A DNA stretch of 64,000 nt from IMG/VR virus record IMGVR_UViG_2778261638_000005, positions 6,684 through 70,683 of that record; one strand, given 5' to 3'. Positions 7,817 through 31,663 of this stretch are shown one piece after another. Source of the DNA: a virus (Duplodnaviria; Heunggongvirae; Uroviricota; Caudoviricetes). Each line of letters opens with the position of its first letter. Position 1 is the stretch's first letter. Below the pieces are notes generated by a model. That model saw nothing but the letters and a program-made list of their open reading frames with translations, was not told where the DNA came from and did no database searches. The position numbers were made by a program, and so were the translations under genes.

Positions 7817-7817
7817 C

Positions 7818-9299: not shown

Positions 9300-9307
9300 T
9301 TCCTCTC

Positions 9308-11978: not shown

Positions 11979-11992
11979 TTCAATGACTCCGG

Positions 11993-12864: not shown

Positions 12865-12889
12865 CGCCCGGTTCGCCGGGCATTTTTTT
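12865..12889 (+). terminator. rho-independent terminator-like hairpin
   Basis: GCCCGG-ttcg-CCGGGC stem followed by ATTTTTTT, downstream of the tRNA. Confidence 0.5.
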
Positions 12890-12900
12890 AAGGTGAGATT

Positions 12901-13257
12901 ATGAACGACCAGCAAATCGAAAAAGAAATCGTTGAGAAAGGCAAAACGGCACCGCGAGTTACGCCTCAATATATCGAAAGCATCATTCTTGAAGAGCATT
13001 TCTTTACTGCTTATGACGGCATTCGTGCCGCCAATATGGGCGTTGGCGATTCATGGACAGCGCATAACTCTACAGACCTCCTGACTTTCTGCGTACTGGT
13101 GCTGAAGAATGGCTTCACCGTCACCGGAGAGAGTGCCTGTGCAAGCCAGGAAAACTTTGATGCAGAAATTGGTCGGAAGATTGCCCGGCAGAATGCTGTA
13201 AACAAAATCTGGATGCTCGAAGGTTACTTGCTGAAGCAGAAGCTAAGCGAGCAATAA
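12901..13257 (+). CDS. hypothetical protein (opposite-strand moron-like gene)
   Basis: 118 aa ORF with AAGGTGAG RBS; only plus-strand gene in an otherwise minus-strand morphogenesis block. Confidence 0.5.
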   Translation: MNDQQIEKEIVEKGKTAPRVTPQYIESIILEEHFFTAYDGIRAANMGVGDSWTAHNSTDLLTFCVLVLKNGFTVTGESACASQENFDAEIGRKIARQNAVNKIWMLEGYLLKQKLSEQ

Positions 13258-13347
13258 CACCGTGACATGTCACAAACAGCCAGCCGATGAGCTGGCTTTG
13301 TTTTATCCTCACCAGAGGATATCAGCAGCATTATCCCCTCCAACGGA

Positions 13348-14823
13348 TTAAGCATAGGGATCGTAATCTGTGATGGCCTTGCCTTGCTGGTTCTGCTGCC
13401 CGGGAATTCGCAGACGCTTCGACACAGGGAACGCAAACGTCAGCAGTAGCGCATCGCCTTTACCCGGCGAACGCCCAAGCCGCTCCTTGATATCTTCCTT
13501 CGGTTCGATAACGATTTTACCGTCCACTCGAACTTTGTACTCAGCCGCCGACAGGTCGTCCGCTGTTTCCTGGTCATCAAGCATGCCACCCAGCCTCAGC
13601 CATGTCTTGCATGAGTTGAACATCTCCCCACGCTTGTTGAGCATCTGCGGGTCAGTAGACGCGCCACCGAACGGAACAAGTTGCCATGTACGACCCCAGC
13701 CGTCACCGATTGACTTCAGACCAGTTCCGTAACCGAAGTCGATGAACACTGCGTCAGCCTGGTACTGGTCTTCAAAGTCAGCGATACGCTTCGCCATAAT
13801 CAGATCGTCAGTGGTCTTGTTGCCAGTCCACAGCACCTTACTGTGCAGCCCCTGCCGCAGGTATATCACAGCGTCATCAACGCCGGAGTATGCCGGGTCA
13901 ACGCCGATTATCACCGGAGCATGTGCAACCTGCGCAGCGGTTACCACCCGTTTCATTGCCTCGTCAGTAAGGCCAGTAGGGATAAACTGCAATTCAGATG
14001 CATCCGGGAATATGCCGCGCACACGGATTTTAACGAAGTCGCTGTCTTCCCCGTAGTCATCAACCCATTTCTGCAACTGCTGTTTGTTAGTGCCTTCCAC
14101 CGTCCGGCTGTCAATCTGCGCACACTTCCAGCGGTGTTTGTACTTGCGGAAACATTCACGGAAACGCCCGGTGTTACGCGTCGGGTTTCCGAACGCCACC
14201 CAGATAATCTCAGTGTCTTCGTCCGTTAGCGCACCCTCGGCAACTTCCCACACCAGATCCGCAATGTTCGACGCTTCATCGAATACCACGATGATGCGTT
14301 TGCGCTCGTTGTGTAGTCCGGCGAATGCCTCAGTGTTGTGCTCAGACCAGGGGATTGCGTCAGCTCGCCACCGCTTGTCGTGCCCAGGGTCATTGCTGTA
14401 CATCGCGGTAGCGGTACAGGTAAACCAGTCTTTCGTGATAGCAAGGTTCGACCACTTGATAATTTCCGGCCAAGTCTTCGTTCGTAGCTGGTTGTCGGTG
14501 TTGGCGGTCACCACGACCTTACAATCCTCGCAAGTGGACATGCCCCAGTTGATCAGCATTGAGATGAATGCGGATTTACCAATACCGTGACCCGAAGCAC
14601 GTGCCAGCATAAGCGGCTGATAGCGCGTCTCTGGATTCTGCAGGTGATCACGTATCTCTCGGAACGCATCAGCCTGCCACTGACGTGGACCGGTGGCATG
14701 TGCTAATTCAGTCCCCTCTTCCCCCCACGGGAACGCATAGAGGGCATAGCCAAGCGGATCGTGAGTGAACCCTGCAATATCCTCGATCAACTGCTCTTCA
14801 GGAGATAACGCTGTATCTGTCAC
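13348..14823 (-). CDS. terminase large subunit
   Basis: 491 aa; Walker A-like SGHGIGKS and Walker B-like IIVVFDEAS; nuclease-type C-terminal half. Confidence 0.85.
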   Translation of the reverse strand: MTDTALSPEEQLIEDIAGFTHDPLGYALYAFPWGEEGTELAHATGPRQWQADAFREIRDHLQNPETRYQPLMLARASGHGIGKSAFISMLINWGMSTCEDCKVVVTANTDNQLRTKTWPEIIKWSNLAITKDWFTCTATAMYSNDPGHDKRWRADAIPWSEHNTEAFAGLHNERKRIIVVFDEASNIADLVWEVAEGALTDEDTEIIWVAFGNPTRNTGRFRECFRKYKHRWKCAQIDSRTVEGTNKQQLQKWVDDYGEDSDFVKIRVRGIFPDASELQFIPTGLTDEAMKRVVTAAQVAHAPVIIGVDPAYSGVDDAVIYLRQGLHSKVLWTGNKTTDDLIMAKRIADFEDQYQADAVFIDFGYGTGLKSIGDGWGRTWQLVPFGGASTDPQMLNKRGEMFNSCKTWLRLGGMLDDQETADDLSAAEYKVRVDGKIVIEPKEDIKERLGRSPGKGDALLLTFAFPVSKRLRIPGQQNQQGKAITDYDPYA

Positions 14824-15494
14824 TGATTACCATCCTGACGTTCTTTGAGTCGCTTCCTGGCTGCTGCTATGCGATCAGCAATTGTCACATTCACATTAAC
14901 ATCCAGACGTTCTTTGAACGCGTTGACATCAACATGCTTACCAATCAGCTCAAGGTTCTTCACCTTGTCAGGCCATTTAATTTTTTTGAGGATTGTCTCT
15001 ATCGAATCCTCGTTCATGTTCATGATGGTCGATGACAGATCAAAGCCACTAAGCGTAGTGCGCCAAATTTTCGGCCACTCACGGATTGGTTTAAGGCTCC
15101 CATCGTCGTTGAGGATGTCGATCACGTCCATCTGGTCGATCTCCACCAGGCGCATGAGAACGTAATCAGCACTGACGCGCATTCGTTTGTTGCGCTCCTC
15201 CATCAACTCGGCAATCCGTTTTTGAATGCGTTCATCGCGCATCATGACACTGGCTTTAACTGCCGCTGTATTTGGGGAGAATCCTGCGTTAATCGCTGCC
15301 TGAGTCTGGTTTTCAGGCGTTTTGATGTATGACTGGCAATAAGCCTCCTGCATTGCTGTTAGTGGCTTAAATTGCGTTGATTTGCGTTTATAGGTTTTAG
15401 GTTCAGCAGGCATCATAACCACCGTGGTAATAGTTACCGTTGTGGTAATAGTATCATGCAAAATAAAGCCGCCATAGTTGGCGGCAGTATTCAA
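14820..15494 (-). CDS. terminase small subunit
   Basis: TPENQTQAAINAGFS HTH motif typical of terminase small subunits; probable true start at MMPAEP (15416); coupled to large subunit. Confidence 0.7.
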   Translation of the reverse strand: MNTAANYGGFILHDTITTTVTITTVVMMPAEPKTYKRKSTQFKPLTAMQEAYCQSYIKTPENQTQAAINAGFSPNTAAVKASVMMRDERIQKRIAELMEERNKRMRVSADYVLMRLVEIDQMDVIDILNDDGSLKPIREWPKIWRTTLSGFDLSSTIMNMNEDSIETILKKIKWPDKVKNLELIGKHVDVNAFKERLDVNVNVTIADRIAAARKRLKERQDGNQ

Positions 15495-15534
15495 AACCCA
15501 TCAAATTCATCATGCATAATCTACTCGTGACATG

Positions 15535-15873
15535 TCACACTATTAATTTCGTTTCATGCCAGCCTTTAGTCACCCAGCATTGCGAGTCACCATTACACGG
15601 GCATGAATTAACTGGAACTCTCTCGCCGCACTTACCGCAACGTTTTCTGCTGATCGATTTTATACGCCCGCGCACGCGTGCATCATCCTGGCGGATCAGT
15701 AACGCTATATACTCACCAAATTCGTAAGGCGCACGCCCGGGGCGACGCGTGGCACAGTTACGCTCCAGCATTTCAATTTCCTGAGCATCAAGCACAATTT
15801 CCAGCTTACGCACACCAGATGCAGCTTGTCTGGCTCTCTGAGCGGCTTTGCGCTCTGCTGATGATTTAGCCAT
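15535..15873 (-). CDS. hypothetical protein, Cys-rich C-terminus
   Basis: 112 aa, CGKCG...CPC motif. Confidence 0.4.
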   Translation of the reverse strand: MAKSSAERKAAQRARQAASGVRKLEIVLDAQEIEMLERNCATRRPGRAPYEFGEYIALLIRQDDARVRGRIKSISRKRCGKCGERVPVNSCPCNGDSQCWVTKGWHETKLIV

Positions 15874-16288
15874 TCTGATTTTCCTGCATCATGAGAAATA
15901 CAATCATGGCGGCGCGGAGTGGGTTGTTGTCTATGGTAATAAATTCACAAAATCTATCCGCCTCCCACCAATATTCATTCTTCATTCCAGGATTATTTCT
16001 TTCGTATGCACATATGCTGATCTGATGTTTTGCGATTACAGGCCATGAGGCGCTCGGATCATTGCAGTAGTCAGGTAAAGGGTTTAATGGCTCAAAAGTT
16101 GTATCAGCATTTCCGTAATACCATTTGTTGGTGTTATTCCCTGATGTTTCCGGTTTACATGCCCAAAGGCCTTTAAAAATTATGTCTCCTACCATTCTGT
16201 TAATTTCAAAATCACTTAACTGTGAATAGTCCATTACTTCACCTCCTGCGGCGGTTCTGGTAGCGGCATCCAATTGATTACATCGCAT
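15866..16288 (-). CDS. hypothetical prophage protein
   Basis: 140 aa ORF, probable start at internal MDYSQL. Confidence 0.4.
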   Translation of the reverse strand: MRCNQLDAATRTAAGGEVMDYSQLSDFEINRMVGDIIFKGLWACKPETSGNNTNKWYYGNADTTFEPLNPLPDYCNDPSASWPVIAKHQISICAYERNNPGMKNEYWWEADRFCEFITIDNNPLRAAMIVFLMMQENQNG

Positions 16289-16617
16289 TCAGGGATGCTG
16301 ATATCATCACCAAGCCACCCTTGACCTTCAGACCAGCATTGCACGTAATACCCGTATTCTGTGTTCACTACGCACCACTGCGCGTCGTCCGGCATTTGCT
16401 CACTACAGCTTATCCAATCATCCGGAGTTACCGGAGAGTTGCCCGATAGCTGGTTCAACTTGTAAGTTTGGCTTACAGGTTCTGCTTCCAGCGATGCCAG
16501 TGCAATTCGTGCCAGCTCTTCCGCTTCTTCTGCTGGCAGTACAACGTTGCTACCAGGTCCGTATGTTTCGCGCCACTGCTTGATTGTCAGCAGTCGCTCT
16601 TTGGTTATAGTGGTCAT
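16234..16617 (-). CDS. DUF551-like prophage protein
   Basis: 127 aa, acidic Trp/Cys-containing C-terminal half typical of DUF551 proteins in enterobacterial prophages. Confidence 0.45.
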   Translation of the reverse strand: MTTITKERLLTIKQWRETYGPGSNVVLPAEEAEELARIALASLEAEPVSQTYKLNQLSGNSPVTPDDWISCSEQMPDDAQWCVVNTEYGYYVQCWSEGQGWLGDDISIPECDVINWMPLPEPPQEVK

Positions 16618-16874
16618 TTGTTAATCCTCAAAACTTTATGCCCGGGCGCAAAAGCACGCGTTTTGTCTTTGCTTATTCGCCAGCCATCCTTGCGCGCCTC
16701 TTTTGCACAGCCAGCCCATGACGTACCTATATACTCACCGAAGTCTGGCGACTTATATTTGCCATCTGTACATTGGAGGCAATCACAATAGAGATGCATG
16801 GTGTAACTTGCAGCGATAGCCATATCACTCTCCTTTAGTGCGCAAGTGGTTTTTCCAGCGGTTTTGCGCCGCAC
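16614..16874 (-). CDS. hypothetical protein
   Basis: 86 aa ORF, Cys-rich. Confidence 0.3.
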   Translation of the reverse strand: MRRKTAGKTTCALKESDMAIAASYTMHLYCDCLQCTDGKYKSPDFGEYIGTSWAGCAKEARKDGWRISKDKTRAFAPGHKVLRINK

Positions 16875-17182
16875 TGGGCTTTTTGCAACAGCTGTGACCC
16901 ATCACCCCGCAACACCCCGTCAACCTCACTCGTCTGTTACTAATCCTCAACCATCGCCAGACCCCAACACCGTTTCTGCTAGCTAACAGAATTTTTGCCT
17001 TACGGTTTTTCATCGTTTTGTTCTCCTGCGTTTCCTTGCTGCTCGTTTCGCCGCTGCAACGCCTGTACGGCGTTTCGGTGCCGGAATGATGCTGTCAGCC
17101 ATCAGGACATACGGCTTTGCAATTAGCGCAGAAGCCCAAAAACGAGTCGGGTACGGTAACAAGCCGATACATGCCACACGCA

Positions 17183-17854
17183 TTACTCACCTCCTTTGAT
17201 GCGAATGCCTGCGGCGCGTGGCACATTAACTTCCACGATGCGCACTGTTGGTTTGTACATCTCAATCGCTGTCAGCCAGTCAGCTCCTGTCATGCGCTTT
17301 TCCGCATCGCCATTAGTCCACTGAACCGGTACACCAATAGCCTTCATCGCAATTTCTATTTCCCCGGCAATGGCGCTTTTCCCGCAACCAGTAAAACCAG
17401 ATACAACGACAAGAACTTCGCCTTTGGCTGGTTTTATTTCCCGAGCTTCCAGTTCTGCTATGCGCTTACTTCCATCCGCGATTACTCCCTCGTAATACTC
17501 ACGCTGCTCGTTGAGTTTTGATTTTGCTTCCTCAAGCTCAACACGCAGTTCCCTTACCGTTAGCGCAATTTCCTCGTTCTCCTGGTCACGGCTTTTGATG
17601 TATTGCTGGTTTCTTTCCCGTTCATCCAGCAGCGCCTGCACTACTTCAGGGTTGAAATCTGCGATATAACGAGCGTTGTTCTCTGCGTTTTTCTGCCCAT
17701 CAAAGCCGGGCCATTTGATAACGTCTTCACATCGTTTATCACCAGGTGTATGCACCGCATATGTACCAGTACCAGACGAAATAAATGCGACCCATTCACC
17801 CTGTGTTGCCAGTTGCGCCGCTTCACGCAGTGCCTGATAGTCAATCTTGCTCAC
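17183..17854 (-). CDS. Ead/Ea22-like protein
   Basis: 223 aa; N-terminal MSKIDYQALREAAQLATQGEW and central coiled coil typical of the Ea22-like family. Confidence 0.5.
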   Translation of the reverse strand: MSKIDYQALREAAQLATQGEWVAFISSGTGTYAVHTPGDKRCEDVIKWPGFDGQKNAENNARYIADFNPEVVQALLDERERNQQYIKSRDQENEEIALTVRELRVELEEAKSKLNEQREYYEGVIADGSKRIAELEAREIKPAKGEVLVVVSGFTGCGKSAIAGEIEIAMKAIGVPVQWTNGDAEKRMTGADWLTAIEMYKPTVRIVEVNVPRAAGIRIKGGE

Positions 17855-18471
17855 TGGTTGCCTCCTTTGCGAAGCTGGGCGGCGATATCTTCGAGAACGC
17901 CATCAGAGAATGAACGGTCAAAATCGCCTTCCGGCGCATTAGCCATAAACTCAGTAGAGGTAAGAATCATCCGGGCAATATCAGCGGCGTTCTTCGCAGT
18001 ATCATCAATAAAACCAGCTTCCCAGGCAGCCAGCATTCTGTTCGCCACAAAGTAAGCGCCCTCCTTGCGTGCTTCAGTCTTCACTTCAGCCAAGAAAGCG
18101 TCGGTGGCTGGGGTTTTTATTTCGTTAAGTGCATCACTGAATCCACCTCTCTCCATACCTAGCTCTGCTTCGTAATCGGCATCGAATGCAGCGTCTTTGC
18201 AGAACTTCTTCAGCTTTGCATTCTCCGCTGCCAGCGCCGAAAACTTCTCGTGTGCCAACTTAACAGCTGCATCAGCCTGCTTAATTGACTCAATCGCTCT
18301 CTGGTGGTCTTCGGCCAGCGCATTAGCACGCACCAGTTGCACTTCCAATTGCGTTGCCAAATTGCTGATCAGCTTTGCCACACTACGCATATCAACGGCC
18401 CCACATTCTGCTTTCAGTTCCGAAGCCATCTCATGCCCGGCGGAAACTAACCCTTTGATATTACTTTCCAT
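17851..18471 (-). CDS. hypothetical protein
   Basis: 206 aa helical protein, overlaps neighbour by 4 nt. Confidence 0.4.
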   Translation of the reverse strand: MESNIKGLVSAGHEMASELKAECGAVDMRSVAKLISNLATQLEVQLVRANALAEDHQRAIESIKQADAAVKLAHEKFSALAAENAKLKKFCKDAAFDADYEAELGMERGGFSDALNEIKTPATDAFLAEVKTEARKEGAYFVANRMLAAWEAGFIDDTAKNAADIARMILTSTEFMANAPEGDFDRSFSDGVLEDIAAQLRKGGNQ

Positions 18472-18532
18472 CTTTACCCTCGCTTATCCACATAACTTAT
18501 TGATTACATTGATAACTAAAAAGATCGTCGAT

Positions 18533-18877
18533 TCAGAACTCTTCGATATTCCAGCCGCCACCTGCTTTCTTTGGCTTAACCGTTACCCCGATGATTCGGA
18601 ACGGATACTGATCTGCGGCGACTTTGGTTTTCACCCTGGCGTCGTCGGTCCAGAAACCTTTCACTTCATGCAGTTCCATCTCACCAGTGGCGAGCATCAC
18701 AGCGAAATCTGGCGTATAGAACGTGTTGTCAGCCAGCCGCAGCTTGATACCCTCGAACCGATACCAGGCGATTTCCCCTGCACGTTTACGCTGCTCAAGG
18801 TGCTGGCAATACGCAGATTCTGTTTTGTTCATCTGGCCTGTTTTGAGTCGACCAAGAGCCTGTATCTGCTTTCTCAT
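18533..18877 (-). CDS. putative PD-(D/E)XK-type nuclease family protein
   Basis: 114 aa; TPDF...GEMELHEVKG resembles a PD..ExK motif; first gene downstream of P in the resident phage. Confidence 0.4.
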   Translation of the reverse strand: MRKQIQALGRLKTGQMNKTESAYCQHLEQRKRAGEIAWYRFEGIKLRLADNTFYTPDFAVMLATGEMELHEVKGFWTDDARVKTKVAADQYPFRIIGVTVKPKKAGGGWNIEEF

Positions 18878-18880
18878 GAT

Positions 18881-18957
18881 TTACCCCTGAGGTAATTAAA
18901 AACCACATAAGACACGAAATCAATAGATTTTAGAATATTTCATTACCCAGAAGGTAA
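18881..18957. promoter_or_regulatory. two TTACC-N5-GGTAA palindromic operator-like sites
   Basis: Perfect copies at 18881-18895 and 18943-18957, same motif as at 58187-58201 and 58899-58913 in the immunity region. Confidence 0.45.
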
Positions 18958-18994
18958 TTATTGAGGCGTAAAAAAATGCGCTATCGCGCTGGTA

Positions 18995-19091
18995 TTACTT
19001 GATAAATCCTGCCGCCTTTCCCCGCCTGTATTCCTCCATCAGCCACTGCGCCGGTGTTATTCCCCCCAGGGTGGCGGCGTTAGGCATGCAC
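18995..19091 (-). pseudogene. displaced 3' end of replication gene P (separated from its 5' part by the Mu-like insertion)
   Basis: Joining host sequence at 56001-56004 to 19091 downwards with one GCAC copy gives an in-frame continuation of P for about 30 codons ending at TAA 18995-18997. Confidence 0.35.
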
Positions 19092-19100
19092 TAAAGCGCG

Positions 19101-19175
19101 CAAAATCATTTGATACCGTTTTGAATTTTTTTTGATACCACCCAAAACGGCACAACGAAAAATTATTTGATACTA
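19101..19175. repeat. right-end transposase-binding repeats (three TTTGATAC cores, attR-like)
   Basis: Cores at 19109-19116, 19131-19138, 19166-19173; 22-bp spacing of the first two as for Mu R1-R2. Confidence 0.6.
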
Positions 19176-19910
19176 ATCGGGAGTGCTTTTAGGGTATGGC
19201 TGAACCCTGAATAGCTTAGTATTTAGCCGCTTCCTTGCTCGCTTGTTCAGGAACCTGATGTAGCGATACTGATTAAATTTGTGCACCACGGCACGCTCTT
19301 TATTAGCCCGTAAATACACGCCTCGTTGTCCACCGCGCTTAATTGCGTTCATCGTTATCTCGTGATACCACTCACCATCCAGCTCGTAGAACGTGCTTTC
19401 ATGGCTGCCAATAAAATCAAAATTCGACGCCTGATACACAACGCCTGCGCGTCCGCAGCGTTCGTCAGCAAAGGACTGAACCCACTCCACTGACGGATAC
19501 AGTAATCTGATAACTTTCAGCGCGTAGCTGATGGCCCGTGATTCAGAGTTGCGGGGCATGTCGTCGTGTAGCCACATGCGATTCAACTCCATATAGCCCC
19601 GGTTATCCGTTTCAAGCACGACACGACGACCTGAGTTGGGGTTAAGGGCATATCCCCACTGGAGAACGCCAACCAGATCGCGTCCGCTGAATACTCCCAG
19701 GTGGAGGTAAGAGTTATTCACAAAACGGCGGGAATAGTGCTTTGTCTGAATAATTGTGCGGGCCAGCCAGCAGGATATGGTTTCAACGCGCAGCTCCTTT
19801 GAACCATAGCCAACAATCTGGCCTTCATACTCAATAACGCACGGTTTCGTCAGAATGCGTGATTTTTTCTCTTTTCCCACAATGTTTCTCCGTGGGATGC
19901 TCGCAGGCAT
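19173..19910 (-). CDS. mom: Mom DNA-modification protein
   Basis: Last gene before the right end, overlapping com as in Mu; start codon uncertain (ATG at 19910 or GTG near 19880). Confidence 0.7.
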
Positions 19911-20019
19911 TCAGCATTATGATGTGACGTTTGCAACGCGGACACCTGATTTCAATGTGATCAAAGGAATCCGCCTTAAATAACAGTTTGTTGCAGTTTT
20001 TACAGCGAATTGATTTCAT
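19831..20019 (-). CDS. com: Com zinc-finger translational activator of mom
   Basis: 62 aa with Cys at 6, 9, 26 and 29; directly upstream of and overlapping mom. Confidence 0.8.
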
Positions 20020-20130
20020 CTCACCTCCTTTGCATCAATTCGCCACTATCTTAAAAAACATCATGGGTTGAGTGTGGTTATTGGGGCATAATCGATCTGT
20101 ATTACCGATCGATTTAATTGATTCGATCGT
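20020..20130 (-). promoter_or_regulatory. mom operon regulatory region with three clustered GATC sites
   Basis: GATC at 20094-20097, 20107-20110, 20125-20128 within about 35 bp between gin and com, as in the Dam/OxyR-controlled Mu Pmom region. Confidence 0.55.
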
Positions 20131-20695
20131 CGTTTTCTATATGCGCTCGTTTCGCGGGGTGTTTTTTATACAGAGTTGACAGGGCCACATCGTAGATCAA
20201 TGCAACCTGCTTGCGGGGGATTCCTTGTGCTAATAAACGCCCGGCCTGCTCCCATTCCGCTTTGGTTAGTTTAGGTGGTCGCCCACCAATACGGCCTTTA
20301 TTTCTGGCGGCAGCAAGTCCAGCCATCGTTCGCTCGATGATTAGTTCTCGTTCCATTTCAGCCAGGGCACCCATAACGTGGAAGAAAAAACGCCCCATTG
20401 GAGAAGATGTGTCTATGCTGTCGGTCAGACTGCGAAAATTAATCCCTCGCTCCCGTAGTTCCCCGACGAGAGAAATCAGATGTTTCATGCTTCGCCCGAG
20501 GCGATCCAGTTTCCAGACAACCAGCGTGTCACCTTTTTGAAGGCGCTTTAAAGCGCGTTTTAATCCCGGTCGGTCTGTCTTTGTCCCGCTTAATTTATCT
20601 TCAAATATTTGTTCACATCCTGCACAAACAAGAGCGTTTCGTTGCAGGTCTGTATTCTGGTCATTTGTTGATACCCTTACATAGCCAATCAGCAC
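20114..20695 (-). CDS. gin: Gin-type serine DNA invertase
   Basis: 193 aa; N-terminal YVRVSTNDQ catalytic serine motif of resolvase/invertase family; C-terminal HTH; adjacent to invertible segment. Confidence 0.9.
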   Translation of the reverse strand: MLIGYVRVSTNDQNTDLQRNALVCAGCEQIFEDKLSGTKTDRPGLKRALKRLQKGDTLVVWKLDRLGRSMKHLISLVGELRERGINFRSLTDSIDTSSPMGRFFFHVMGALAEMERELIIERTMAGLAAARNKGRIGGRPPKLTKAEWEQAGRLLAQGIPRKQVALIYDVALSTLYKKHPAKRAHIENDDRIN

Positions 20696-20749
20696 TCTGG
20701 ATCTCCCGTTTAAAAGCGCAAATCATGCCATGCAGGCCGGAAACAACCA

Positions 20750-20777
20750 TTATCTAAAACCTCGGTTTACAGGAAAC
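20750..20777. repeat. gix recombination site (gin-proximal copy)
   Basis: TTATCTAAAACCTCGGTTTACAGGAAAC; inverted copy at 23813-23840 with 2 mismatches; matches the Mu gix sequence as recalled. Confidence 0.8.
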
Positions 20778-20931
20778 GGTAAACAGGGCTGGTAACGCCG
20801 TTCAAAAGACAGGCGATACCTTATCCGGTGGGCTTACTTTTGAAAACGACTCAATCCTTGCCTGGATTCGAAATACTGACTGGGCAAAGATTGGATTTAA
20901 AAATGATGCCGACAGCGACACAGATTCATAC

Positions 20932-21780
20932 ATGTGGTTTGAAACAGGCGACAACGGCAATGAATATTTCAAATGGAGAAGCAAACAAAGCACCACAACA
21001 AAAGACCTGATGAATCTTAAATGGGATGCTTTGTCTGTTCTTGTTAAAGCCCTTTTCAGCAGTGAAGTAAAAATATCGACAGTCAATGCACTGAGGATAT
21101 TTAATTCATCTTTTGGTGCCATTTTTCGCCGTTCTGAAGAATGCCTGCATATCATCCCTACACGAGAGAATGAGGGGGAAAATGGTGATATAGGGCCACT
21201 ACGTCCCTTTACGCTTAATCTCAGAACTGGCCGCATAACTATGGGGCATGGTCTGGATGTTACAGGAGATATAACAACTAACGCCTGGGTGTATGCAAAC
21301 AGGTTTGCTATTAATAGTGGCTCAACCTCATGGATTGATATGCGAAACCAGAATGTCATTTTTGGTAGAAACGCAGTATCAACAAGTTCTGCGCAGGCTT
21401 TGTTAAGACAAGACCATGCAGAACGCAAATTTTTTGTCGGTGGACTTGGTAACTACCAGTTTGGTTTTTACATGATTAATAACTCAAGGACAGCCAATGG
21501 CACCGATGGTCAGGCGTACATGGATAATAACGGTAACTGGCTTTGTGGCTCGCAAGTTATTCCTGGCAACTATGGCAATTTTGATTCCAGATATGTGAGA
21601 GATGTTCGCCTGGGTACGCGAGTTGTTCAATTGATGGCGCGTGGTGGTCGTTATGAAAAAGCCGGACACGCAATTACCGGATTAAGAATCATTGGTGAAG
21701 TAGATGGCGATGATGAAGCCATCTTCAGGCCAATACAAAAATACATCAATGGCACATGGTATAACGTCGCACAGGTGTAA
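20932..21780 (+). CDS. alternative tail-fibre variable domain Sv' (silent orientation)
   Basis: Open frame continues upstream to the gix site at about 20779; C-terminus INGTWYNVAQV parallels the S C-terminus INGTWYNAGSI; would fuse to the constant S part after inversion. Confidence 0.7.
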   Translation: MWFETGDNGNEYFKWRSKQSTTTKDLMNLKWDALSVLVKALFSSEVKISTVNALRIFNSSFGAIFRRSEECLHIIPTRENEGENGDIGPLRPFTLNLRTGRITMGHGLDVTGDITTNAWVYANRFAINSGSTSWIDMRNQNVIFGRNAVSTSSAQALLRQDHAERKFFVGGLGNYQFGFYMINNSRTANGTDGQAYMDNNGNWLCGSQVIPGNYGNFDSRYVRDVRLGTRVVQLMARGGRYEKAGHAITGLRIIGEVDGDDEAIFRPIQKYINGTWYNVAQV

Positions 21781-22311
21781 ATGATGCAGCATTTAAAAAA
21801 TATTAAGTCTGGAAATCCTAAAACGAAAGAACAATATCAGCTAACAAAGAATTTTGATGTTATCTGGTTATGGTCCGAAGACGATAAAAACTGGTATGAG
21901 GAAGTGAAAAACTTTCAGCCAGACACAATAAAGATTGTTTACGATGCAAATAATATTATTGTCGCCATCACTAAAGATGCCTCCACGCTTAACCCTGAAG
22001 GTTTTAGCGTCGTTGAGGTTCCTGATATTACAGCCAACCGCCGCGCTGATGATTCAGGAAAGTGGATGTTTAAGGATGGAGCTGTAGTTAAACGGATTTA
22101 TACGGCAGACGAACAGCAACAACAGGCCGAATCACAAAAGGCCGCATTGCTTTCCGAAGCTGAATCAGTCATCCAGCCGCTGGAACGCGCTGTCAGGCTG
22201 AATATGGCAACAGACGAGGAACGCACACGACTGGAAGCATGGGAACGCTACAGTGTTCTGGTCAGCCGTGTGGATACGGCAAATCCTGAATGGCCACAAA
22301 AGCCTGAATAA
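21781..22311 (+). CDS. alternative tail-fibre assembly protein U'
   Basis: 176 aa; N-terminus near-identical in pattern to U ([18 protein letters not shown]); convergent with U. Confidence 0.75.
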
Positions 22312-22316
22312 AAATT

Positions 22317-22338
22317 AAGGCCCGCTATCGGGCCTTGT
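22317..22338. terminator. bidirectional stem-loop between convergent U and U'
   Basis: GGCCCG-ctat-CGGGCC hairpin between the two stop codons at 22309-22311 and 22340-22342. Confidence 0.5.
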
Positions 22339-22339
22339 C

Positions 22340-22873
22340 TCATTCAGGTTGTTCGGGAAATGTTACTGGCAGGCTGGAGGTGTCTGTAGATTCGACTTTC
22401 TGCGCATAGAGCATCCACTCAGTTAATTTTTGTTTATTCTCGTCGGAAATGATGCCCAGCCGTAGCTGTGAGTCCCATAGCTGGGTTTTATCCCTGACAA
22501 GTTGCAACAGGCTTTGTTTTTCATTCTCTGCCTGCTGCCTTTGTTCCTCCTCGGTATAAGTTCGCTTTATCACTACGCCATCTTTGAACATCCATTTACC
22601 CGAAATATCAGCCCGGCGATTTGCTGTAATATCAGGAACCTCAACGACGCTTGCGCCTTCTGGATTAATTGCTGAAACATCCTTTTCAATACAAATAATA
22701 ACGTCGTTGTGGTCATAGACCATTTTCAACGTATCAGGCTGAAAGTTCTTTTGTTCCTCATACCAGTTTTTCCCATCCTCTGTATAAAGCCATTTGATGT
22801 TAAATTGTTTCGTTAGCTGGTATTGCTCTTTTGTTTTAGGGTTGCCAGCAGTAATGTTTTTTAAGTGCATCAT
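22340..22873 (-). CDS. tail-fibre assembly protein U
   Basis: 177 aa, paralogue of U', immediately after S. Confidence 0.8.
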   Translation of the reverse strand: MMHLKNITAGNPKTKEQYQLTKQFNIKWLYTEDGKNWYEEQKNFQPDTLKMVYDHNDVIICIEKDVSAINPEGASVVEVPDITANRRADISGKWMFKDGVVIKRTYTEEEQRQQAENEKQSLLQLVRDKTQLWDSQLRLGIISDENKQKLTEWMLYAQKVESTDTSSLPVTFPEQPE

Positions 22874-22875
22874 CG

Positions 22876-24336
22876 TTAAATACTCCCCGCGTTATACCAC
22901 GTCCCATTAATGCAATACTGAATTGGCCTTGCCTGAGTTGTATCAATTAATTCATCACGGTTTCCGTTAACTGAACCTGTAACGACATAACCTGACCTGT
23001 CAGACCAGCCGGGACCATTCCATGTCTGAACAGATGACAGACCGCCCAGGCGAATACCTGTAATAAACCTTGAGTTACATTCTGCCTGCGTATATGCACC
23101 AACATCCCCCGCAGAGGGTTTGCGGGTTGTGGTGTAAAACTCTGACCAGTTAGCTTCAAAGCCATAACCATCACGCGCTGAACGATAAAAGATACCGCCG
23201 TTCTTATAATTCACGCGGAACTGTACAGCAGGGCAACTCCCCGCATTCATATTGAAGTGGAGGATTAATGTCGATGCGCCACTGATATCTGCATCATAAA
23301 CGCCGCTATTCCAGTTCCAGCCAACAGCTTTATCATTTGCAACCCTGCTTCCTGTTTGCCCTAAAGCAAATGCAGGCTGCTGGTTTTTCGTGTTGTAGTC
23401 TCTTCGCCAGCCAGGAGCATAAGCATCACCATGATTAATATAAGTGAATTGAGCGTTAGTAATTCCGCCACCGCTGGACGTGCTCGGGGTGGTTACACGG
23501 ATGGTCATGGCTCCTTTATTACCCATAACCTCAATAACGCAACCTGCAAGATGAATAGTTCCACAGCCAGTATCGGTAATAATTTTATTATTGCCGTATG
23601 ACCATGAACATTTGCACATCCAGTATGGGTGATTGAATGCCCCTTGAGAATCCAGCCATTCAATCAATTGTGCCGTCGTCCAGTTTCCTGCACCTGTGCT
23701 AATAGCACTGTGAAAAGCGCGACATGCACCAATATTTTTTGTGAAAGTATCTTTTCCTGGAATATCTGCGCCGTTCTGGTTTTTCTGTAATGCGCCAGAA
23801 GCCTGATTTACCGTTTCCTGTAAACCGACGTTTTGGATAAACAGCGGCTTATTGGGAATATCTGCTCCGTTCCGGTCTTTTGCCAGACGGGCATTGGCAT
23901 TATCCATCGCAATTTTCACCGCTTTTGCGGTGGCTGCCAGCGTTTCACTGGGGCTGTCAGTGGCACTGGTTAGCTGAACGAGTCCTTTTTTGTTCAGGCT
24001 GGCATCATAGATATCCAGATTTTCACGTGCTGTACGCTGTGCTGATGCCCCGGCAGTTTTAATTTCACTGAGGTTATTTTTTATCAGCAGCGCGTTATTG
24101 CTCATAATGGCTTTAATGGACAGTGCAAGCTGGTTTAATTTTGTTTTATCCGGTTGAATACCGGCTTCTTCCAGCGTGTTTAATAACTCCGCCTGCACAA
24201 TATTAAACCAGTCCATGCCGGGCCATGTGATAACATTATTCCCGTCACCTTCTGAAAACCAGCGAACGATAGCACTACGCTGGGCGGATACGGGCGGCAT
24301 GACGGTTACGCCGCTGTCGTTATCAATATAAAACAT
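22876..24336 (-). CDS. tail-fibre protein S (constant N-terminal part plus variable Sv part inside the invertible segment)
   Basis: 486 aa; gix site lies inside the gene at 23813-23840; internal NGADIP repeat. Confidence 0.8.
   Translation of the reverse strand: MFYIDNDSGVTVMPPVSAQRSAIVRWFSEGDGNNVITWPGMDWFNIVQAELLNTLEEAGIQPDKTKLNQLALSIKAIMSNNALLIKNNLSEIKTAGASAQRTARENLDIYDASLNKKGLVQLTSATDSPSETLAATAKAVKIAMDNANARLAKDRNGADIPNKPLFIQNVGLQETVNQASGALQKNQNGADIPGKDTFTKNIGACRAFHSAISTGAGNWTTAQLIEWLDSQGAFNHPYWMCKCSWSYGNNKIITDTGCGTIHLAGCVIEVMGNKGAMTIRVTTPSTSSGGGITNAQFTYINHGDAYAPGWRRDYNTKNQQPAFALGQTGSRVANDKAVGWNWNSGVYDADISGASTLILHFNMNAGSCPAVQFRVNYKNGGIFYRSARDGYGFEANWSEFYTTTRKPSAGDVGAYTQAECNSRFITGIRLGGLSSVQTWNGPGWSDRSGYVVTGSVNGNRDELIDTTQARPIQYCINGTWYNAGSI
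23813..23840. repeat. gix recombination site (copy inside S gene)
   Basis: GTTTCCTGTAAACCGACGTTTTGGATAA, reverse complement of the 20750-20777 site with 2 mismatches. Confidence 0.8.
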
Positions 24337-24878
24337 TAGTTATCTCCGTCATGGTAAACAAATTTATAAATCTGATGTGCGGGTTTATATTTCTCCAGTA
24401 AACATTCCAGCGCACCCGATTCATAAACACGTAACGGCGTCAGAACATTATCCAGCACCGTTGCGTTGCGATAATTTTTAATACCGTAAATATTGACCTG
24501 CGTAACCCACTGGCCTTCTGTGGAATCCGTCAGCCTGACGGTAAAACCGTACTGTGCAGCCAGCCATTCATAAAAGCGCCGACTCAGATTGCCGGTCATA
24601 CGCATTTTATTCGCGGCAGCCCGCTGGCGTTCGGACAAGGTGCCGTTTTCGCTGGTACAGTCCGGCAACCCCAGAAATGATTCCCACTCCCCCAGATACC
24701 AGCGGGATGTGGACGGGAAACGCTCCCGCAGCATTTGCCGCGCATCATCCGCCGCAGTGGCAATCACGTCGCTGATGGCCTGCGCCAGCGCAGATAATTT
24801 GCTGTCGGGGCTTTTATTCCAGGCAAGCCCTGACGGCAGTAATTGCAGAAAGGCCGTCTGATAGGGTGTTACAGCCAT
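24336..24878 (-). CDS. baseplate/tail protein (Mu gp48 position)
   Basis: 180 aa; position and size in conserved Mu tail order. Confidence 0.6.
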   Translation of the reverse strand: MAVTPYQTAFLQLLPSGLAWNKSPDSKLSALAQAISDVIATAADDARQMLRERFPSTSRWYLGEWESFLGLPDCTSENGTLSERQRAAANKMRMTGNLSRRFYEWLAAQYGFTVRLTDSTEGQWVTQVNIYGIKNYRNATVLDNVLTPLRVYESGALECLLEKYKPAHQIYKFVYHDGDN

Positions 24879-25951
24879 TCAATTGTCCCCGGTGTTAACA
24901 GTTCCGTATTCTCCGAACGCTGGATCTCTGTCGGGAAACGCACTTCAAAATCATCCAGACCGGTAACACCTGCCACCGCACGGATAATACGGGAGGGGGC
25001 AAGTGCGCCGCCCGGCGTCACCTCATTAAAAAACATGGTATTAATGGCGTGGGTAATAGCCTGTTTCAGTTCGGCTGTCTTCGGTGATATATAAATCCGT
25101 GGATTTACCGGCTTTGCCTTTGGCGCAAATACAGTGACATTTACACCGTCAGGCTGTCCGACAATCAGACCGGTGATCGGGTCAGTATGACCGGCGATAT
25201 AATCTGCCACGCGTTCCACGTCTGCCGGTTGTGGAAAAATATTGCTCCGGTTATCCATAACAAACGTCACCCCGACTGTGCCACCGCCTTTCCATGTCGG
25301 AAAACACCAGGCACGGGTAACGCCGCTGACTTCACGTGCCCAGCGGACGTAATCAAACTGATTACCGCCGAACGGAGGATACTGGACACGATATTCCAGC
25401 CGTGACAGCAGCTCCGCTGCACTCTCAATATCAGCCCCACCGGAAAACCCTTTTACAGTGATGGCATCGGAAACAACACAGGCAACCGGGGTGATCAACG
25501 TTAAAAGGGTATTCTCACCGGTATTTCCTGCTTCACCGGCAGCCAGTGCGGTAACGGTAATTTCCGTCGTTCCTGCACGGTCAATCACAATGGCATCAGC
25601 CAGGCTGTAAACCACACCATCAGCACGCTGCCAGCGTGTACCGGCAGGAATGGTGGTCGCTGCCGATGTGGTGACAGTCAGCGGGCCGCTGGCGGCTGTC
25701 GCCTGTTTGCGGCGCACGCCCCAGAACCGGCAGTGCTCCAGCAACTCATCTTCATCTGCTGTCGACGGGATAATCTGCCGTCCAACCCATGAAATATGCT
25801 CGTGACAACCGGCAGCAAGGCCCGCCTGAGCATAAGCAATGGCACTCAGCGTTTTTTCACGGGCCTGAGGCCAGCTACCCGGCAGGCGCTGTTCAATATT
25901 CTGTTCTGTACGGGCAATCAGCGATGATAATGTCGGTGGTGAATAAGCCAT
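24869..25951 (-). CDS. baseplate J-like protein (Mu gp47 position)
   Basis: 360 aa; baseplate wedge position. Confidence 0.65.
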   Translation of the reverse strand: MAYSPPTLSSLIARTEQNIEQRLPGSWPQAREKTLSAIAYAQAGLAAGCHEHISWVGRQIIPSTADEDELLEHCRFWGVRRKQATAASGPLTVTTSAATTIPAGTRWQRADGVVYSLADAIVIDRAGTTEITVTALAAGEAGNTGENTLLTLITPVACVVSDAITVKGFSGGADIESAAELLSRLEYRVQYPPFGGNQFDYVRWAREVSGVTRAWCFPTWKGGGTVGVTFVMDNRSNIFPQPADVERVADYIAGHTDPITGLIVGQPDGVNVTVFAPKAKPVNPRIYISPKTAELKQAITHAINTMFFNEVTPGGALAPSRIIRAVAGVTGLDDFEVRFPTEIQRSENTELLTPGTIEWL

Positions 25952-26389
25952 TTAAACCCCGTTAAATGCTGCTTTAAACTCATAAGGAATAACGGAACCA
26001 TCCGGTAATGTCAGTGCAATGTAGAGGTATAACCAGCCCTGATGTAACTGTTCCGCTCTGATGTTAATCGCACTTACCCGGCCCGCTGTTTTCAGCCATT
26101 CCAGCGCCTCTTCGGCATACCCTCTGGCGCGTTCCAGCGTATCCGGTGTGGCTTTTTCACGTGATAACAGCCATAACCGCGAACCGATGGGGCGGTCGCG
26201 GTAACTGTCACCCCACCATCCACGGCGATCATCTGAACCATCCGGCAGCGTGTCAGAATCCAGCGCGCGCCGGTCTGTAAACAGGGAGATTGTCACATCG
26301 GTTGTCAGGCTGTCGTCGGTCAGCATATCAATGCCATCCTGTGCAATATCGCCGCGTCCGTTCGTCCAGATAATGGCTAAATCGGTCAT
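25952..26389 (-). CDS. baseplate wedge protein, GPW/gp25-like (Mu gp46 position)
   Basis: 145 aa, conserved order. Confidence 0.6.
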   Translation of the reverse strand: MTDLAIIWTNGRGDIAQDGIDMLTDDSLTTDVTISLFTDRRALDSDTLPDGSDDRRGWWGDSYRDRPIGSRLWLLSREKATPDTLERARGYAEEALEWLKTAGRVSAINIRAEQLHQGWLYLYIALTLPDGSVIPYEFKAAFNGV

Positions 26390-26979
26390 TGCATTGGCCC
26401 CGTGGTTCCGCCGCTGTCGCCACGGTGGATATGCTTATCCGTCGATTTGCCATTGATGATGGCATCCGGGGCAGTAATATTGCTGTCGAACTGGCTTTTA
26501 CCTTTAACGCCCAGACCTTTCTGGATCTCAACGTCGCCGGTAAACGTGGTTCTGGGTGTGTCAACGGTCATACTTTCATCAGCGTAAACCTCAACCGTTT
26601 TACAGGTAATGATGCAGCGTCCGTCCTTTGTCAGCCTGATACGATGCCCCTCGTGGTGGTAAATGCCTGCATCACCCGGTTCAAGATTTGTCGGGCGGTA
26701 GCGGCGGTCTTCCACCACAACGGCAATCCCCTGATCACGTTGTGCGCCTACACAGGCAATCAGCGCCTCTGCGCCCGGCAGGGGAACGCTGAAATGCCCG
26801 TAATTTTGCAGGCGCTCCACTTCATCAGATTCCTCATCATCCAGCAGGCCGACCTGCAGGTTCTGAACCTTTCGCCCGTCGTTAATCACGTTAACAACAG
26901 CGCGCGCAAGCATCAGGCGCACACGACGCATCAGCGGCGTCAGCAGGCGGTTCAGGGCGGAATCATTTACTCTTTCCAC
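26386..26979 (-). CDS. baseplate spike/assembly protein V-like (Mu gp45 position)
   Basis: 197 aa, conserved order. Confidence 0.6.
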   Translation of the reverse strand: MERVNDSALNRLLTPLMRRVRLMLARAVVNVINDGRKVQNLQVGLLDDEESDEVERLQNYGHFSVPLPGAEALIACVGAQRDQGIAVVVEDRRYRPTNLEPGDAGIYHHEGHRIRLTKDGRCIITCKTVEVYADESMTVDTPRTTFTGDVEIQKGLGVKGKSQFDSNITAPDAIINGKSTDKHIHRGDSGGTTGPMQ

Positions 26980-28106
26980 GGCGGCGTTTTCTCCGGGTGT
27001 CTGCGATAATAATCTTCAACCAGCGCATCAATACCGCCGTTACTGTCGCCGCCTTTCCTGTTTTTACGGTCGCTTTCAACCGGCACCAGAAAGCCTTCGC
27101 GTGGTGCAAGGCTGACGCGGGTTTTCAGCCCGTCCTGGTCATTCAGTATCAGGGTGACTTTGCTGACCAGTAATTCCGTGGTTTTGATGGCATATTTCGA
27201 GGCATCAATAGTGACCAGCAGGTTCGGCATCCAGAGTTGCCCGTCCTTGCGAGTCCATCCGTCAATTTCAGCCTCAAAGGTGATGGATTTTGCCAGTCTG
27301 CGGCGTTGCTCACGCAGGGCGCGGGCCTGTGCATCCTTCGCCGTAATTTTGCTGTCAGCAATGATGATCATCGGTCTGTAACGGGTTACATCACTGTCAG
27401 TGGCGGTCCCTTTCCGGGAGACGATACTTTTCGCATCAATATCATCACCCTCAGCACCGTTTGCGCGGGCATACCCCTTGACGGTGTATTCGCTGAACCG
27501 GTCGCGGAAGTCTTCCTCAAAATCCAGTGTCAGCAGATTTTCTCCGAGAACCAGCTCATCAGTGGCTGTGCTGGCAGCCCGGCTGAATACCAGCTCTCCT
27601 GCGGCATTGCTGGTCATCAGTACACCGCGTGCGCGGGAGGCACGCACCAGCGCCTCATAAACGGTTTCTGAATGGTCCAGCGTGAAGCCGGGAAAAGCTG
27701 CCGAACTTTCCTTATCGGAAAGCTCCCAGCGAACGGTAACGCCATAAGGAGCGCACAGGTCACGCGCAATCTGCTCCAGTGTGCGGTTTTTCCACTGTCC
27801 GCCACTGTAAACGGCAGCACAGTCAATCAGGTCAGCCGTTTTGTCACGTCCGGCGATAGTGATTTTCATGCTGTCAGCGGTCATCTGGCGTCGCCGCGAA
27901 TCGATATAACCGGTGCAGACAATCTGCCCGTCGATTTCCAGCGTGAACGCCTTCCCCGGTGCCAGCCCGGATAAATCTGTACCCGGTGGCACATTCACCC
28001 CCAGCTCAAAATATCCGGCTACGGATTCAATGGAGCGGGTGACAGAGACTGACGTCCAGCCGGTAAAAAGCCTGCCATCCGTTCGCAGCGTGACGGTATT
28101 ACTCAT
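26967..28106 (-). CDS. baseplate hub protein (Mu P position)
   Basis: 379 aa, matches Mu P size and order. Confidence 0.65.
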
Positions 28107-29586
28107 TAATCACCTCAATACTGACACCACCGGGAACAAACAACGGGTTGCTGATACCGTTCCTGCGGGCCAGCCGTTGCCAGTTCCGGCTGTTTCCTGT
28201 GTAACGGTACAGAGCCACCATTGCAGGCATCGTCTCCGGCAGGCGGTGCGTTTCACTGCCCGCCAGTTGCAGCCCGCGTTTTTCCAGGTCGGCAACAACC
28301 AGCAGACGCAGTTGCGTAAGCTGAACGCTGTCTGTCGAAAAGCCCTGCTCAGATGCCGTCAGAATGACGGTATCCAGCGCTGCCCCCAGCATGGTGGCTG
28401 TTTTTCCGATATCGGACACACTTTCAAATACCGGGGGCGTGGCTGTACCACTGTCTGAAAAGGATACCTGTGAAAAGCCGCCGTCCGGGGTTATGGCAGT
28501 TAACTGTAACTGTCCCTGTGTGACGGTAGCAGATGTGCTGCTGGCCCCGCTGGCTGTGCCGGTTGTGGTGGACGGAGCATCCAGTACAGGTGCACGGGCG
28601 GCATTATCCATCCGGCGACTGAAATCCAGTGCCGCAGTCAGTGCCTGGCTTGCTGCCTCCGCCCGGTATGTCTGCGCCGCTGCCAGCATGACGTAGTTCA
28701 GTGTGGCAATATTTTTTTCTGCAACCGGACTGTTGTACGAGGTTGTGATTGTCCCCTGTCTGCCTGTGGTGGCGGCATGGCGACGTTCGAATCGCTGCGC
28801 CAGACGGTTCCAGGTGGAAAATGCTGTCCGGGTATCGCATAACGATGAAACGCCGGACAGCGCCCCCATCAGCGAGGAGGCCAGCATGGCAGGCTGGTTA
28901 ATCAGGCTGGTCACAGAGCCTTTCATCGCAGAAAGCGATCCCATCAGACCGCTGACAGTCTGCGTAACCCCCAGATTGTCCACCGCATCACTGATATCAT
29001 CGATGACACCGGTTACAGCTTCCATCACGGCGGTTGCCGCCGCAGTGCCATCTTTTACGGTCTGCCAGACAGAGGACAGCGTATCTCCCAGAGAACCGGT
29101 TACAGCAACGGCCTGTGCCGGTACGGCTGCACTGGTGTCTGTCTCTGAGTCCGGGGCAGTATCCTGCAACGACGGATAAACGGTAACGGTGAACGCGTAA
29201 TAATTCAGTTCATCCGCTTTAGTGCGGCATTCCCATGAATCCACCATGACGTCCACAGTGCCGAAATCAGGATGTACCAGCTCACCGCTACCCGGAGCAT
29301 CAAGAGCATCCATCAGCGCACCCGCTTCATCTCTGGCTGTTTCTGCGTTGCTGTTCAGAATGCAGGCGCTGAATGTACGGGAGCGAAGCTTTTTCCCCAG
29401 GTCATTGACGCCGCCGGTATCACGTAACGGGTACTCGCGTTTAACCAGGCGACGTCCGCCAGCCTGTTTTTGCTCCTCGATGACGAGAAACGGCACGTTA
29501 CGAAACGTGCCTTTGCCGGTTGTTTTCTTACCACCGCTGATTTTATCCCGGACAGCATTAACGGCATTTAAAGCATCTTCAAACAT
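28099..29586 (-). CDS. DNA circularisation protein N-like
   Basis: 495 aa directly after tape measure, as Mu N. Confidence 0.65.
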
Positions 29587-29590
29587 GGTT

Positions 29591-31663
29591 TTACCAGCCT
29601 GTAATGTAGTTATCGCCCGCGTAAATATTCAGCCCCATACCGTCCTCGGTGACGCGGGAACTGGTCAGACGTAACCCCTCGCCAAGTTCGACGCGCAGCG
29701 AGGCTTCCGCATTCACTTTTTGTTCCTGCGGTTCCTTATCCGGGGCCGTCCATTTCTGATACAGGTCGGTTACAAAACCGCCCAGATACTCCCCGGCGAC
29801 ACTGCCCAGCGTGGCACCGGCAACCGTACCCAGCGGTCCGGCAAGGCTGCCAACGGCACCGCCGAGCCATGCACCGGCTGTACTGCCAATTGCGCCTGCT
29901 TTTTCATGGGTTGACGCCTGCTCATCCATCAGGACGGGGGCAAGCTGGAGTGCCCCCATTACCGGGCCACCCAGACGTGACAACGCACGACCGGCACCTT
30001 TCCCCATCCAGCCCAGCGCCCCGGCACCTTTTGTCACAACCCGACCGATCGCACTGCCTGCAAGTTTGTTTCCGATACCGGAAAACCACCCGCCAACAGC
30101 ACGCCCGGCATCAGCCAGCTTTCCGACCGTTCCCGTAACCAGTTGCCCGGCAGCACTGCCTGCAAGCCTGCTCAGAAGACCGGATTTACCGGGTAAAGGT
30201 AATGGTGCAGGCCGTGCTGTTACCGGTACGCCGGGTGGGGGTAATGCCAGTACAGGGCGTGGTGCAGGTAATGCCAGCGGCTGTGGCCCGGACAGCAATA
30301 ACGGCTGGCGGGGTAACAGCGGGGCCATTCTTCCGCCGCTCCGTCCGCGACGACCGCCGCCACTCCCGTAGCCACCAAATCCACGGGGCCAGTTGATGAC
30401 AAACACACGCTGAATGCCAATACCCTGCAACAGCGTCTCAGACGTCATGGCATCCGGGACCGGCAGACCTGCCTGCCCACGTTTGCGGTTTCGCATCCAG
30501 CGCCACATACGACGCCCGGTTTTAAACGGATAACTGGCAACCTGCCATGAGGGTTTTGCCACGGCCCAGCCTGCTCTCAGGGCTTTATTGGCAAGCCAGA
30601 CAGACACCAGAACAGCAGCCAGTTTTTTCAGGCTGACAATATTCTGGTCAACCCATGCCAGCGCATCTTTACCCGGTTTCAGCCAGCGCCATAATTCCTG
30701 CGCCGCGATTTTTACCGTTCTGAACGTGGTCAGAAATTTCTGACCAATGTTTTCTGCCAGTGCATCAAGTTCCCCGGATTTATCCGCCATGTCGTGCCAG
30801 TTAAGCACCCGGCGCATCTCGTTCTTGATTTCTTCAAAGGGGCCGCTGTTTGCCACCTTTATGCGAAATTCAAGCAGGTTGGCTTCCATCTGGGCGAACA
30901 TCCCGTCCCAGGAGTTCATCGCACTGGCCTGTGCACCTTTTGACTGTTCTGACAGCGTACTGAATACCGTCAGAATGGATTTCATGCCCAGCTTGCCCTT
31001 TGTACCCAGATCACGGATTTTTTTAACGTCCGTTCCCGTTGCATCCGCCAGCGCCTGATAAACGTTGATACCGTAACCGGTCAGCAGGTTGGCATCCGCC
31101 GCTGTGATTTGCTGGCGGGCAAACATCTGTTTCAGTTGCAGTGAGGCACCCTGTGCAGTGGGTAAATCCCAGCCGTGCATGGCCCCCTGATCCTGCAACA
31201 TGGTGATGAACTGTTTCGTCTGTTCATCCGTCATGCCGAAGCCTTTCGACGAACGGATCTCATCAAGAACACCACTCAGCCCCCACGTGGTGTCCTTCGC
31301 GTTCTGCTTCGCCCAGGCCATCATGGCCTGCGCTCTGACCTTATCGCCGTGATACAGCGAGTTCATGGCGATGATCTGCTGCTCACGCTGGGCGGCTGCA
31401 CCAATAAACAGTTTATTGGCGGTGTAACCCACGCCAGCGATACCCAGCGCCCCGGCTGACAGCATTCGGAATGTACGGGTTGACAGTGAACCCATTCTGT
31501 CAATGGCACCAGAAACGCGCACAACCTCCATACGCAGGGCACGAAGGGAACTTTGCCCGCTACGGGACAGGGCGTTTATCTGGTTCGAATACTGGCGGGA
31601 ACGCCGGGAAAGATTGCCATTAAGATCAATAATGACAGACGCCTTTAAGCGTTTCCCGGTCAT
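29591..31663 (-). CDS. tail tape measure protein
   Basis: 690 aa, long helical N-terminal part, Pro/Gly-rich repetitive C-terminal part. Confidence 0.8.

Follow-up and report, generated by a model that had tools for sequence, protein, structure and literature searches.

The 64,000-nucleotide stretch analyzed here (hereafter the window; positions 6,684 to 70,683 of the virus record IMGVR_UViG_2778261638_000005) contains a segment of about 3 kb that is bounded by inverted recombination sites and carries two opposed sets of tail-fibre genes next to a gene for the DNA invertase Gin. We are highly confident that this locus is a functional inversion switch of the phage Mu type, built from Gin and its gix sites within a Mu-like prophage, which would swap the tail-fibre tip together with its assembly chaperone and hence the host range. 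This reading draws on the sites and their cores, the invertase, the compatibility of the reading frames, the homologies of the encoded proteins, and the presence of both orientations in near-identical elements. The locus is a textbook, already described system in which the sequence-testable features of the Gin/gix G-segment family are found, and its value is practical rather than conceptual: The orientation recorded in an assembly is an arbitrary snapshot, and the host range of the phage would be twice that suggested by the annotated tail-fibre gene S.

Architecture of the Invertible Segment

The elements of the locus are arranged as follows, with Sc and Sv denoting the constant and variable parts of S.

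20114..20695, minus strand: gin, serine DNA invertase, 193 amino acids (aa), GTG start, Ser9 in VLIGYVRVSTNDQ
20610..20677, minus strand: putative recombinational enhancer (Fis sites), gin nucleotides (nt) 19-86, placed by homology
20750..20775, plus strand: gin-proximal gix, TTATCTAAAACC-TC-GGTTTACAGGAA; 34-bp arm 20750-20783
20762..23828, no strand: G segment, the invertible part, 3,067 bp from core to core; S stays in frame after inversion in silico
20764..21780, plus strand: variable part of the Mu Sv type, silent; 338 codons, the frame opening at the gix core
21781..22311, plus strand: chaperone for tail-fibre assembly, 176 aa, of the Mu U type, silent, Pfam Caudo_TAP
22317..22336, minus strand: hairpin rich in GC and then a T-run, between the convergent chaperone genes, from a consensus scan only
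22340..22873, minus strand: chaperone for tail-fibre assembly, 177 aa, of the Mu U' type, in the orientation of S, Pfam Caudo_TAP
22876..23826, minus strand: variable part in frame with Sc (Mu Sv' type)
22876..24336, minus strand: whole S open reading frame (ORF), 486 aa, unbroken across the right-hand gix, Pfam Phage_fiber_2
23815..23840, minus strand: Sc-proximal gix inside S, minus-strand reading TTATCCAAAACG-TC-GGTTTACAGGAA; 34-bp arm 23807-23840
23829..24336, minus strand: Sc, constant N-terminal part of S, codons 1-169 and the first base of codon 170, outside the segment

The arms of the repeat were located with a repeat finder and then compared base by base. They form an inverted repeat of 34 bp with two mismatches (20750-20783 against the reverse complement of 23807-23840), which lie at offsets 6 and 12 counted from the outer end. 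Past these 34 bp come three differing bases and then a weaker match, because both variable parts begin with homologous codons; taken as a whole, the arms span 58 nt at 78% identity (20750-20807 and 23783-23840). The 34-bp repeat is the classical repeat of the Mu G segment. A preliminary description of this DNA had reported it as 28 bp with two mismatches: The coordinates and the mismatch count were exact, while the length had been truncated.

The 26-bp gix site of Mu, TTATCCAAAACCTCGGTTTACAGGAA, is found exactly twice in the window, once on each strand and each time with a single mismatch, and none of 100 shuffled windows contained two matches. The shuffles and the precise gix match rule out a chance match or an ordinary duplication as the source of the repeat. 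Both 26-bp sites are composed of 12-bp half-sites around an identical 2-bp core, TC, which is located at 20762-20763 on the gin side and at 23827-23828 on the Sc side; the lack of a conserved crossover core, which the preliminary description had named among the observations that would refute the switch, is not seen here. The gin-side site departs from Mu by one change in its outer half-site, C to T at position 6, which, upstream of the silent cassette, puts a TAA into a dead frame. In the Sc-side site there is likewise one change, C to G at position 12 and directly adjoining the core, through which residue 170 of S is valine instead of leucine. Since both substitutions reside in outer half-sites, they would never be exchanged upon inversion.

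The segment measures 3,067 bp from core to core, which agrees with the gix-bounded length of about 3.06 kb given previously, and three further elements of that account hold as well. The right-hand repeat copy lies within S at the boundary of constant and variable part, the crossover point falling in codon 170; the S ORF runs continuously across this site while the frame of the silent cassette opens at the left-hand core, so that one cassette is in frame and the other silent; and gin is adjacent to the segment, 54 bp from the left-hand gix. When positions 20762-23828 are inverted in silico, the frame is kept and a 508-aa alternative S results, whose sequence switches after ...FIQNVGLQETVN. The two variable parts bear no sequence relation to each other except at their ends. 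The locus has the layout of a Mu-type G segment: Sc lies outside, and two opposed cassettes of tip and chaperone, both frame-compatible with it, lie inside. The hairpin between the chaperone genes is predicted to be a terminator-like site for the expressed S-U' transcript.

How such silent cassettes are treated in databases can be seen in the RefSeq annotation of Escherichia coli W (NC_017635, locus 1753-2769), where the corresponding cassette is tagged as a pseudogene ('incomplete; missing N-terminus'). This tag is misleading in that it describes a stored alternative exon, and it amounts to a systematic mis-description in invertible segments.

Gin itself is intact and 99.5% identical to Mu Gin. 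It contains the Pfam domains Resolvase (expect value E = 2e-50) and HTH_7 (E = 2e-17), as is characteristic of a serine recombinase, and matches the PDB entries 3uj3/4m6f ('DNA-invertase') over its full length (E = 2e-125). At the nucleotide level, gin nt 1-110 are the same as in Mu gin, and nt 1-216 differ at only three positions. Because the interval of P7 cin that corresponds to gin nt 19-86 is annotated as a putative enhancer and gin nt 1-110 equal those of Mu, we infer a recombinational enhancer at approximately 20610-20677 within the 5' end of gin. This would place it about 95 bp from the nearer gix core, which is similar to the spacing of about 100 bp between enhancer and site in the native Hin system. 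For Mu, the title of Kahmann et al. 1985 puts the enhancer 'within the invertase gene'; a literature search for its exact coordinates yielded general descriptions alone. A scan for Fis sites (G-N13-C with an AT-rich centre) pointed to gin nt 94-154 instead of the region where the sites were expected, and we do not rely on its result.

Orientation Relative to Mu

The orientation was set by alignment to the Mu reference AF083977, which is G(+). The flanks align to Mu via the minus strand of the window (97.7-98.8% identity), whereas the interior of the segment aligns via the plus strand. The protein comparisons are in line with this arrangement.

In-frame S against Mu S', full length: 92.4% identity
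In-frame S against Mu S, residues 1-198 only: 93% identity
Chaperone downstream of S against Mu U': 98.9% identity
Silent chaperone against Mu U: 94.9% identity
Alternative S, full length, against Mu S: 77.6% identity
Variable part of the alternative S against the P7 alternative form: 95.7% identity

Moreover, the expressed S matches PDB 8ju3 ('Tail fiber protein S, Tail fiber protein S''; an S/S' chimera) end to end over residues 1-486, and the silent variable part matches residues 171-503 of PDB 5yvq (Mu S; E = 1e-139). With a homologue of Mu S'/U' in frame and a homologue of Mu S/U silent, the window was sequenced in the G(-) state relative to Mu. The labels Sv and Sv' used in the preliminary description are therefore swapped relative to Mu: The in-frame cassette is of the S'/U' type and the silent one of the S/U type. 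In the P7 record AF503408, 'S / C(+)' denotes the cassette homologous to Mu S' and 'Sv prime' the homologue of Mu S. As this naming is opposite to that of Mu, names with and without a prime cannot be carried over from Mu to the P7 record or back.

Both Orientations Occur in Near-Identical Prophages

Public sequences stood in for read-level data. Complete E. coli genomes were searched with region 20000-24400, once as sequenced and once inverted in silico; at a coverage of at least 80%, the native arrangement was matched by 18 genomes and the inverted one by 19. One pair consists of the independent E. coli W assemblies NC_017635 and NC_017664, which have the homologous prophage at the same coordinates and are identical there but for one inversion, in which exactly 3,016 bp are reverse-complemented and the breakpoints fall within the 34-bp repeat. 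A second pair, FDAARGOS_1059 and O111:H2 12A, shows opposite orientations as well; both strains have the exact gix variant pair of the window, and their interiors are identical as reverse complements at 3090 of 3092 positions. A counterpart to the inverted window emerged from a pattern search of metagenome contigs, in which contig OHKB01000012.1 was 99.98% identical to the in-silico inverted window over 4,262 bp spanning the Sc junction; it encodes the predicted 508-aa S with zero mismatches. A pattern search of species-representative genomes gave no match. In ten prophages with an identical Mom protein, the slot for the expressed chaperone is occupied by the 175-aa form in one half (5/10) and by the 177-aa form in the other (5/10).

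Whichever orientation is present, the T variant of gix always lies on the gin flank and the G variant always on the Sc flank. From these fixed flanks, the exchange must lie somewhere past position 12 and no further than the identical 22 bp extend, which is consistent with the core. Judged from the deposited sequences, both orientations exist in the element family and also in a 99.98%-identical copy.

Two relatives deserve mention in their own right. E. coli ST18 (NZ_CP060709.1) contains two copies of the homologous prophage region (388271-392664 and 498258-502651), one in each orientation. In LDCX01000006.1 (GCA_001012535.1, locus 6190-6309) gin is cut to a 39-aa helix-turn-helix fragment while both gix sites are kept, and its segment is probably a frozen G segment.

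Proposed Inversion Mechanism

On the model of Mu, Hin and Cin, from whose literature the dependence on Fis and the enhancer, the mode of strand exchange and the consequence for host range are taken, inversion may be pictured as follows. Gin dimers would bind both inverted 26-bp gix sites and, together with host Fis bound to the enhancer in the 5' end of gin, would assemble a synaptic tetramer on supercoiled DNA. Both sites would then be cut at the central TC with a stagger of 2 nt, one pair of subunits would turn by 180 degrees, and religation would leave the 3,067-bp segment flipped. Because the S promoter and the first 169 codons lie outside the segment, each orientation would fuse Sc to a different C-terminal, receptor-binding part, with the matching chaperone gene downstream. 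By analogy with what is published on Mu and SfMu, the phage would thereby form two types of virion that differ in host range. In the sequenced state, the S'/U'-type cassette would be expressed and the S/U-type cassette silent.

Several points weigh against this picture. The authors of the study on the Shigella phage SfMu, which shares both gix variants with the window, proposed that the C-to-G change beside the core could reduce or abolish inversion (PMC4406740). Positions 16876-30336 of the window are 100% identical to contig NMKE01000004.1 of GCA_002542025.1, which gives one orientation only; the comparative data support inversion for near-identical elements and not for the sequenced lysogen itself. 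The coordinates of the enhancer are transferred by homology rather than measured. Finally, a scan for sigma-70 promoters found nothing above chance near gin, with fewer sites than in shuffled sequences and none upstream of gin.

The two gix substitutions might tune the switch by lowering or biasing its rate, so that inversion would be slower or asymmetric compared with Mu in a widespread SfMu-like lineage; we put this forward tentatively and would not expect it to hold. Markedly less probable, in our estimation, is a frozen or very slow switch, in which the substitutions cripple binding or ligation by Gin and the prophage is effectively locked in G(-). Lysates of SfMu obtained by induction and by infection had the same host range, and the base change by the core was offered by the authors as one possible cause (PMC4406740); likewise, at least eight contigs that encode the exact S protein share one orientation, though the look-up method itself imposes that. 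These observations are countered by the occurrence of the same gix variant pair in both orientations among near-identical prophages and by the 12 public contigs with the G variant, in which Sc is joined to a start of the Mu Sv type nine times, to the Sv' type of the window once and to a third type twice. Furthermore, with the same dinucleotide in both cores, no core mismatch stands in the way of religation. Since near-identical elements with the same sites are found in both orientations, the comparison bears directly on the question raised for SfMu and argues against the notion that the base change by the crossover prevents or abolishes inversion; on the rate of inversion the comparative data are silent.

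We attach almost no weight to the explanation that the orientations differ through host homologous recombination at short repeats or through assembly choices instead of Gin: Although the enzyme behind a given inversion cannot be told from sequence alone and assemblers can mis-orient repeat-bounded segments, 34 bp are a poor RecA substrate, a longer inverted repeat between the chaperone genes (351 nt, 70%) gives no sign of use because the E. coli W breakpoints fall within the 34-bp repeat, an intact invertase that is nearly the same as that of Mu adjoins the segment, and both orientations recur over many independent assemblies.

Comparison with Known Invertible Segments

The Gin/gix switch in the window can be set beside several described systems. 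With phage Mu (AF083977) it shares the order of Sc outside, gix, cassette, inverted second cassette, gix and gin, followed by com-mom, as well as the 34-bp inverted repeat, the Gin protein and, at the DNA level, the flanks with the identities given above. It differs from Mu in its orientation, G(-) as opposed to the G(+) of the reference, in the one substitution within each gix, in 12 bp between gix and the gin leader, and in its variable part of the Mu S type, which is only 67% identical to Mu and nearer to P7. SfMu (KP010268; PMC4406740) agrees with the window in both gix variants (gin-side T, Sc-side G) and in the deposited orientation, G(-), at a region identity of 91-93%, whereas its genome ends are of the Mu type, those of the window prophage being of another kind, and the alternative S is 84.5% identical.

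The interior of the segment (window 20793-23796) is 96.9-97.2% identical to the C segment of P7. The C segments of P1 and P7, which are inverted by Cin, follow the same logic of alternative Sv/U cassettes and have an enhancer in the 5' end of the invertase gene, the place of the putative enhancer in gin, yet they use Cin and cix in place of Gin and gix (the invertases have about 71% DNA identity), and the constant part of S in P7 is far longer (975 aa). Compared by description, Hin/hix of the Salmonella flagellar phase switch, Pin of e14 and Min of p15B are serine invertases of the same subfamily, dependent on Fis and an enhancer, with 26-bp sites and a 2-bp core; Hin differs in that it flips a promoter and not the 3' ends of genes and is encoded inside its segment, and Min in that it acts on six sites.

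The whole segment, along with the 3' part of the invertase gene, recurs at up to 97% identity in prophages that lack Mu flanks (query 308-3841, corresponding to window 20307-23840), and P2-like phages such as P88 also match, which indicates that the invertible module moves horizontally between phage families. In three relatives, Sc continues downstream of the Sc-side gix into a variable part with a third type of start (ACGGTAAACCGGGCC...). Among prophages with the identical Mom, S ranges from 405 to 517 aa in length, which indicates that cassettes are exchanged frequently. One relative with the identical Mom, CYCV01000001.1 (GCA_001286025.1, locus 260-5661), contains three gix sites as well as another full-length S (488 aa), which is inverted and has its own Sc; this suggests a more complex, multi-site invertible region.

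Prophage Context

Relatives were compared, and the surrounding prophage was excised in silico, to define its ends. The Mu-like prophage extends from about 19092 to 55999 (36.9 kb) and interrupts the replication gene P of a lambdoid prophage, so that one prophage lies inside another (positions 19087-19091 and 55926-56708 of the window). When position 19091 is joined to 56005, a P ORF of 266 aa is restored, and 536 E. coli records match this joined sequence from end to end (best 99.8%). A 5-bp target duplication with one mismatch (TGCAC / AGCAC) marks the junctions at 19091/19092 and 55999-56004. Relatives of the prophage are inserted in many different host genes.

The prophage ends read TAAAGCGCGCAAAATCATTTGATAC... 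and each carry three TTTGATAC motifs in inverted orientation (19092-19190 and 55820-55999). Sequences of the Mu attL/attR ends, searched with up to three mismatches, were not found in the window, nor did the right end of SfMu match there. Pfam matches within the prophage comprise Mu-transpos_C, HTH_Tnp_Mu_1 (weak), Phage-MuB_C and Mom, the transposase (52716-54803) matching the Mu DNA-binding domain weakly. The early region is closest to the Yersinia phages vB_YpM_5/6, with 96.5% identity.

In the flanking lambdoid prophage (1-19091 and 56005-64000), two large ORFs (493-3006, 837 aa; 4022-6493, 823 aa) had no Pfam match. The same prophage has GP7-type capsid, portal and small terminase genes, Ead/Ea22 and DUF1064, as well as RecT plus a PDDEXK exonuclease and an O-like gene (DnaT/HTH_36).

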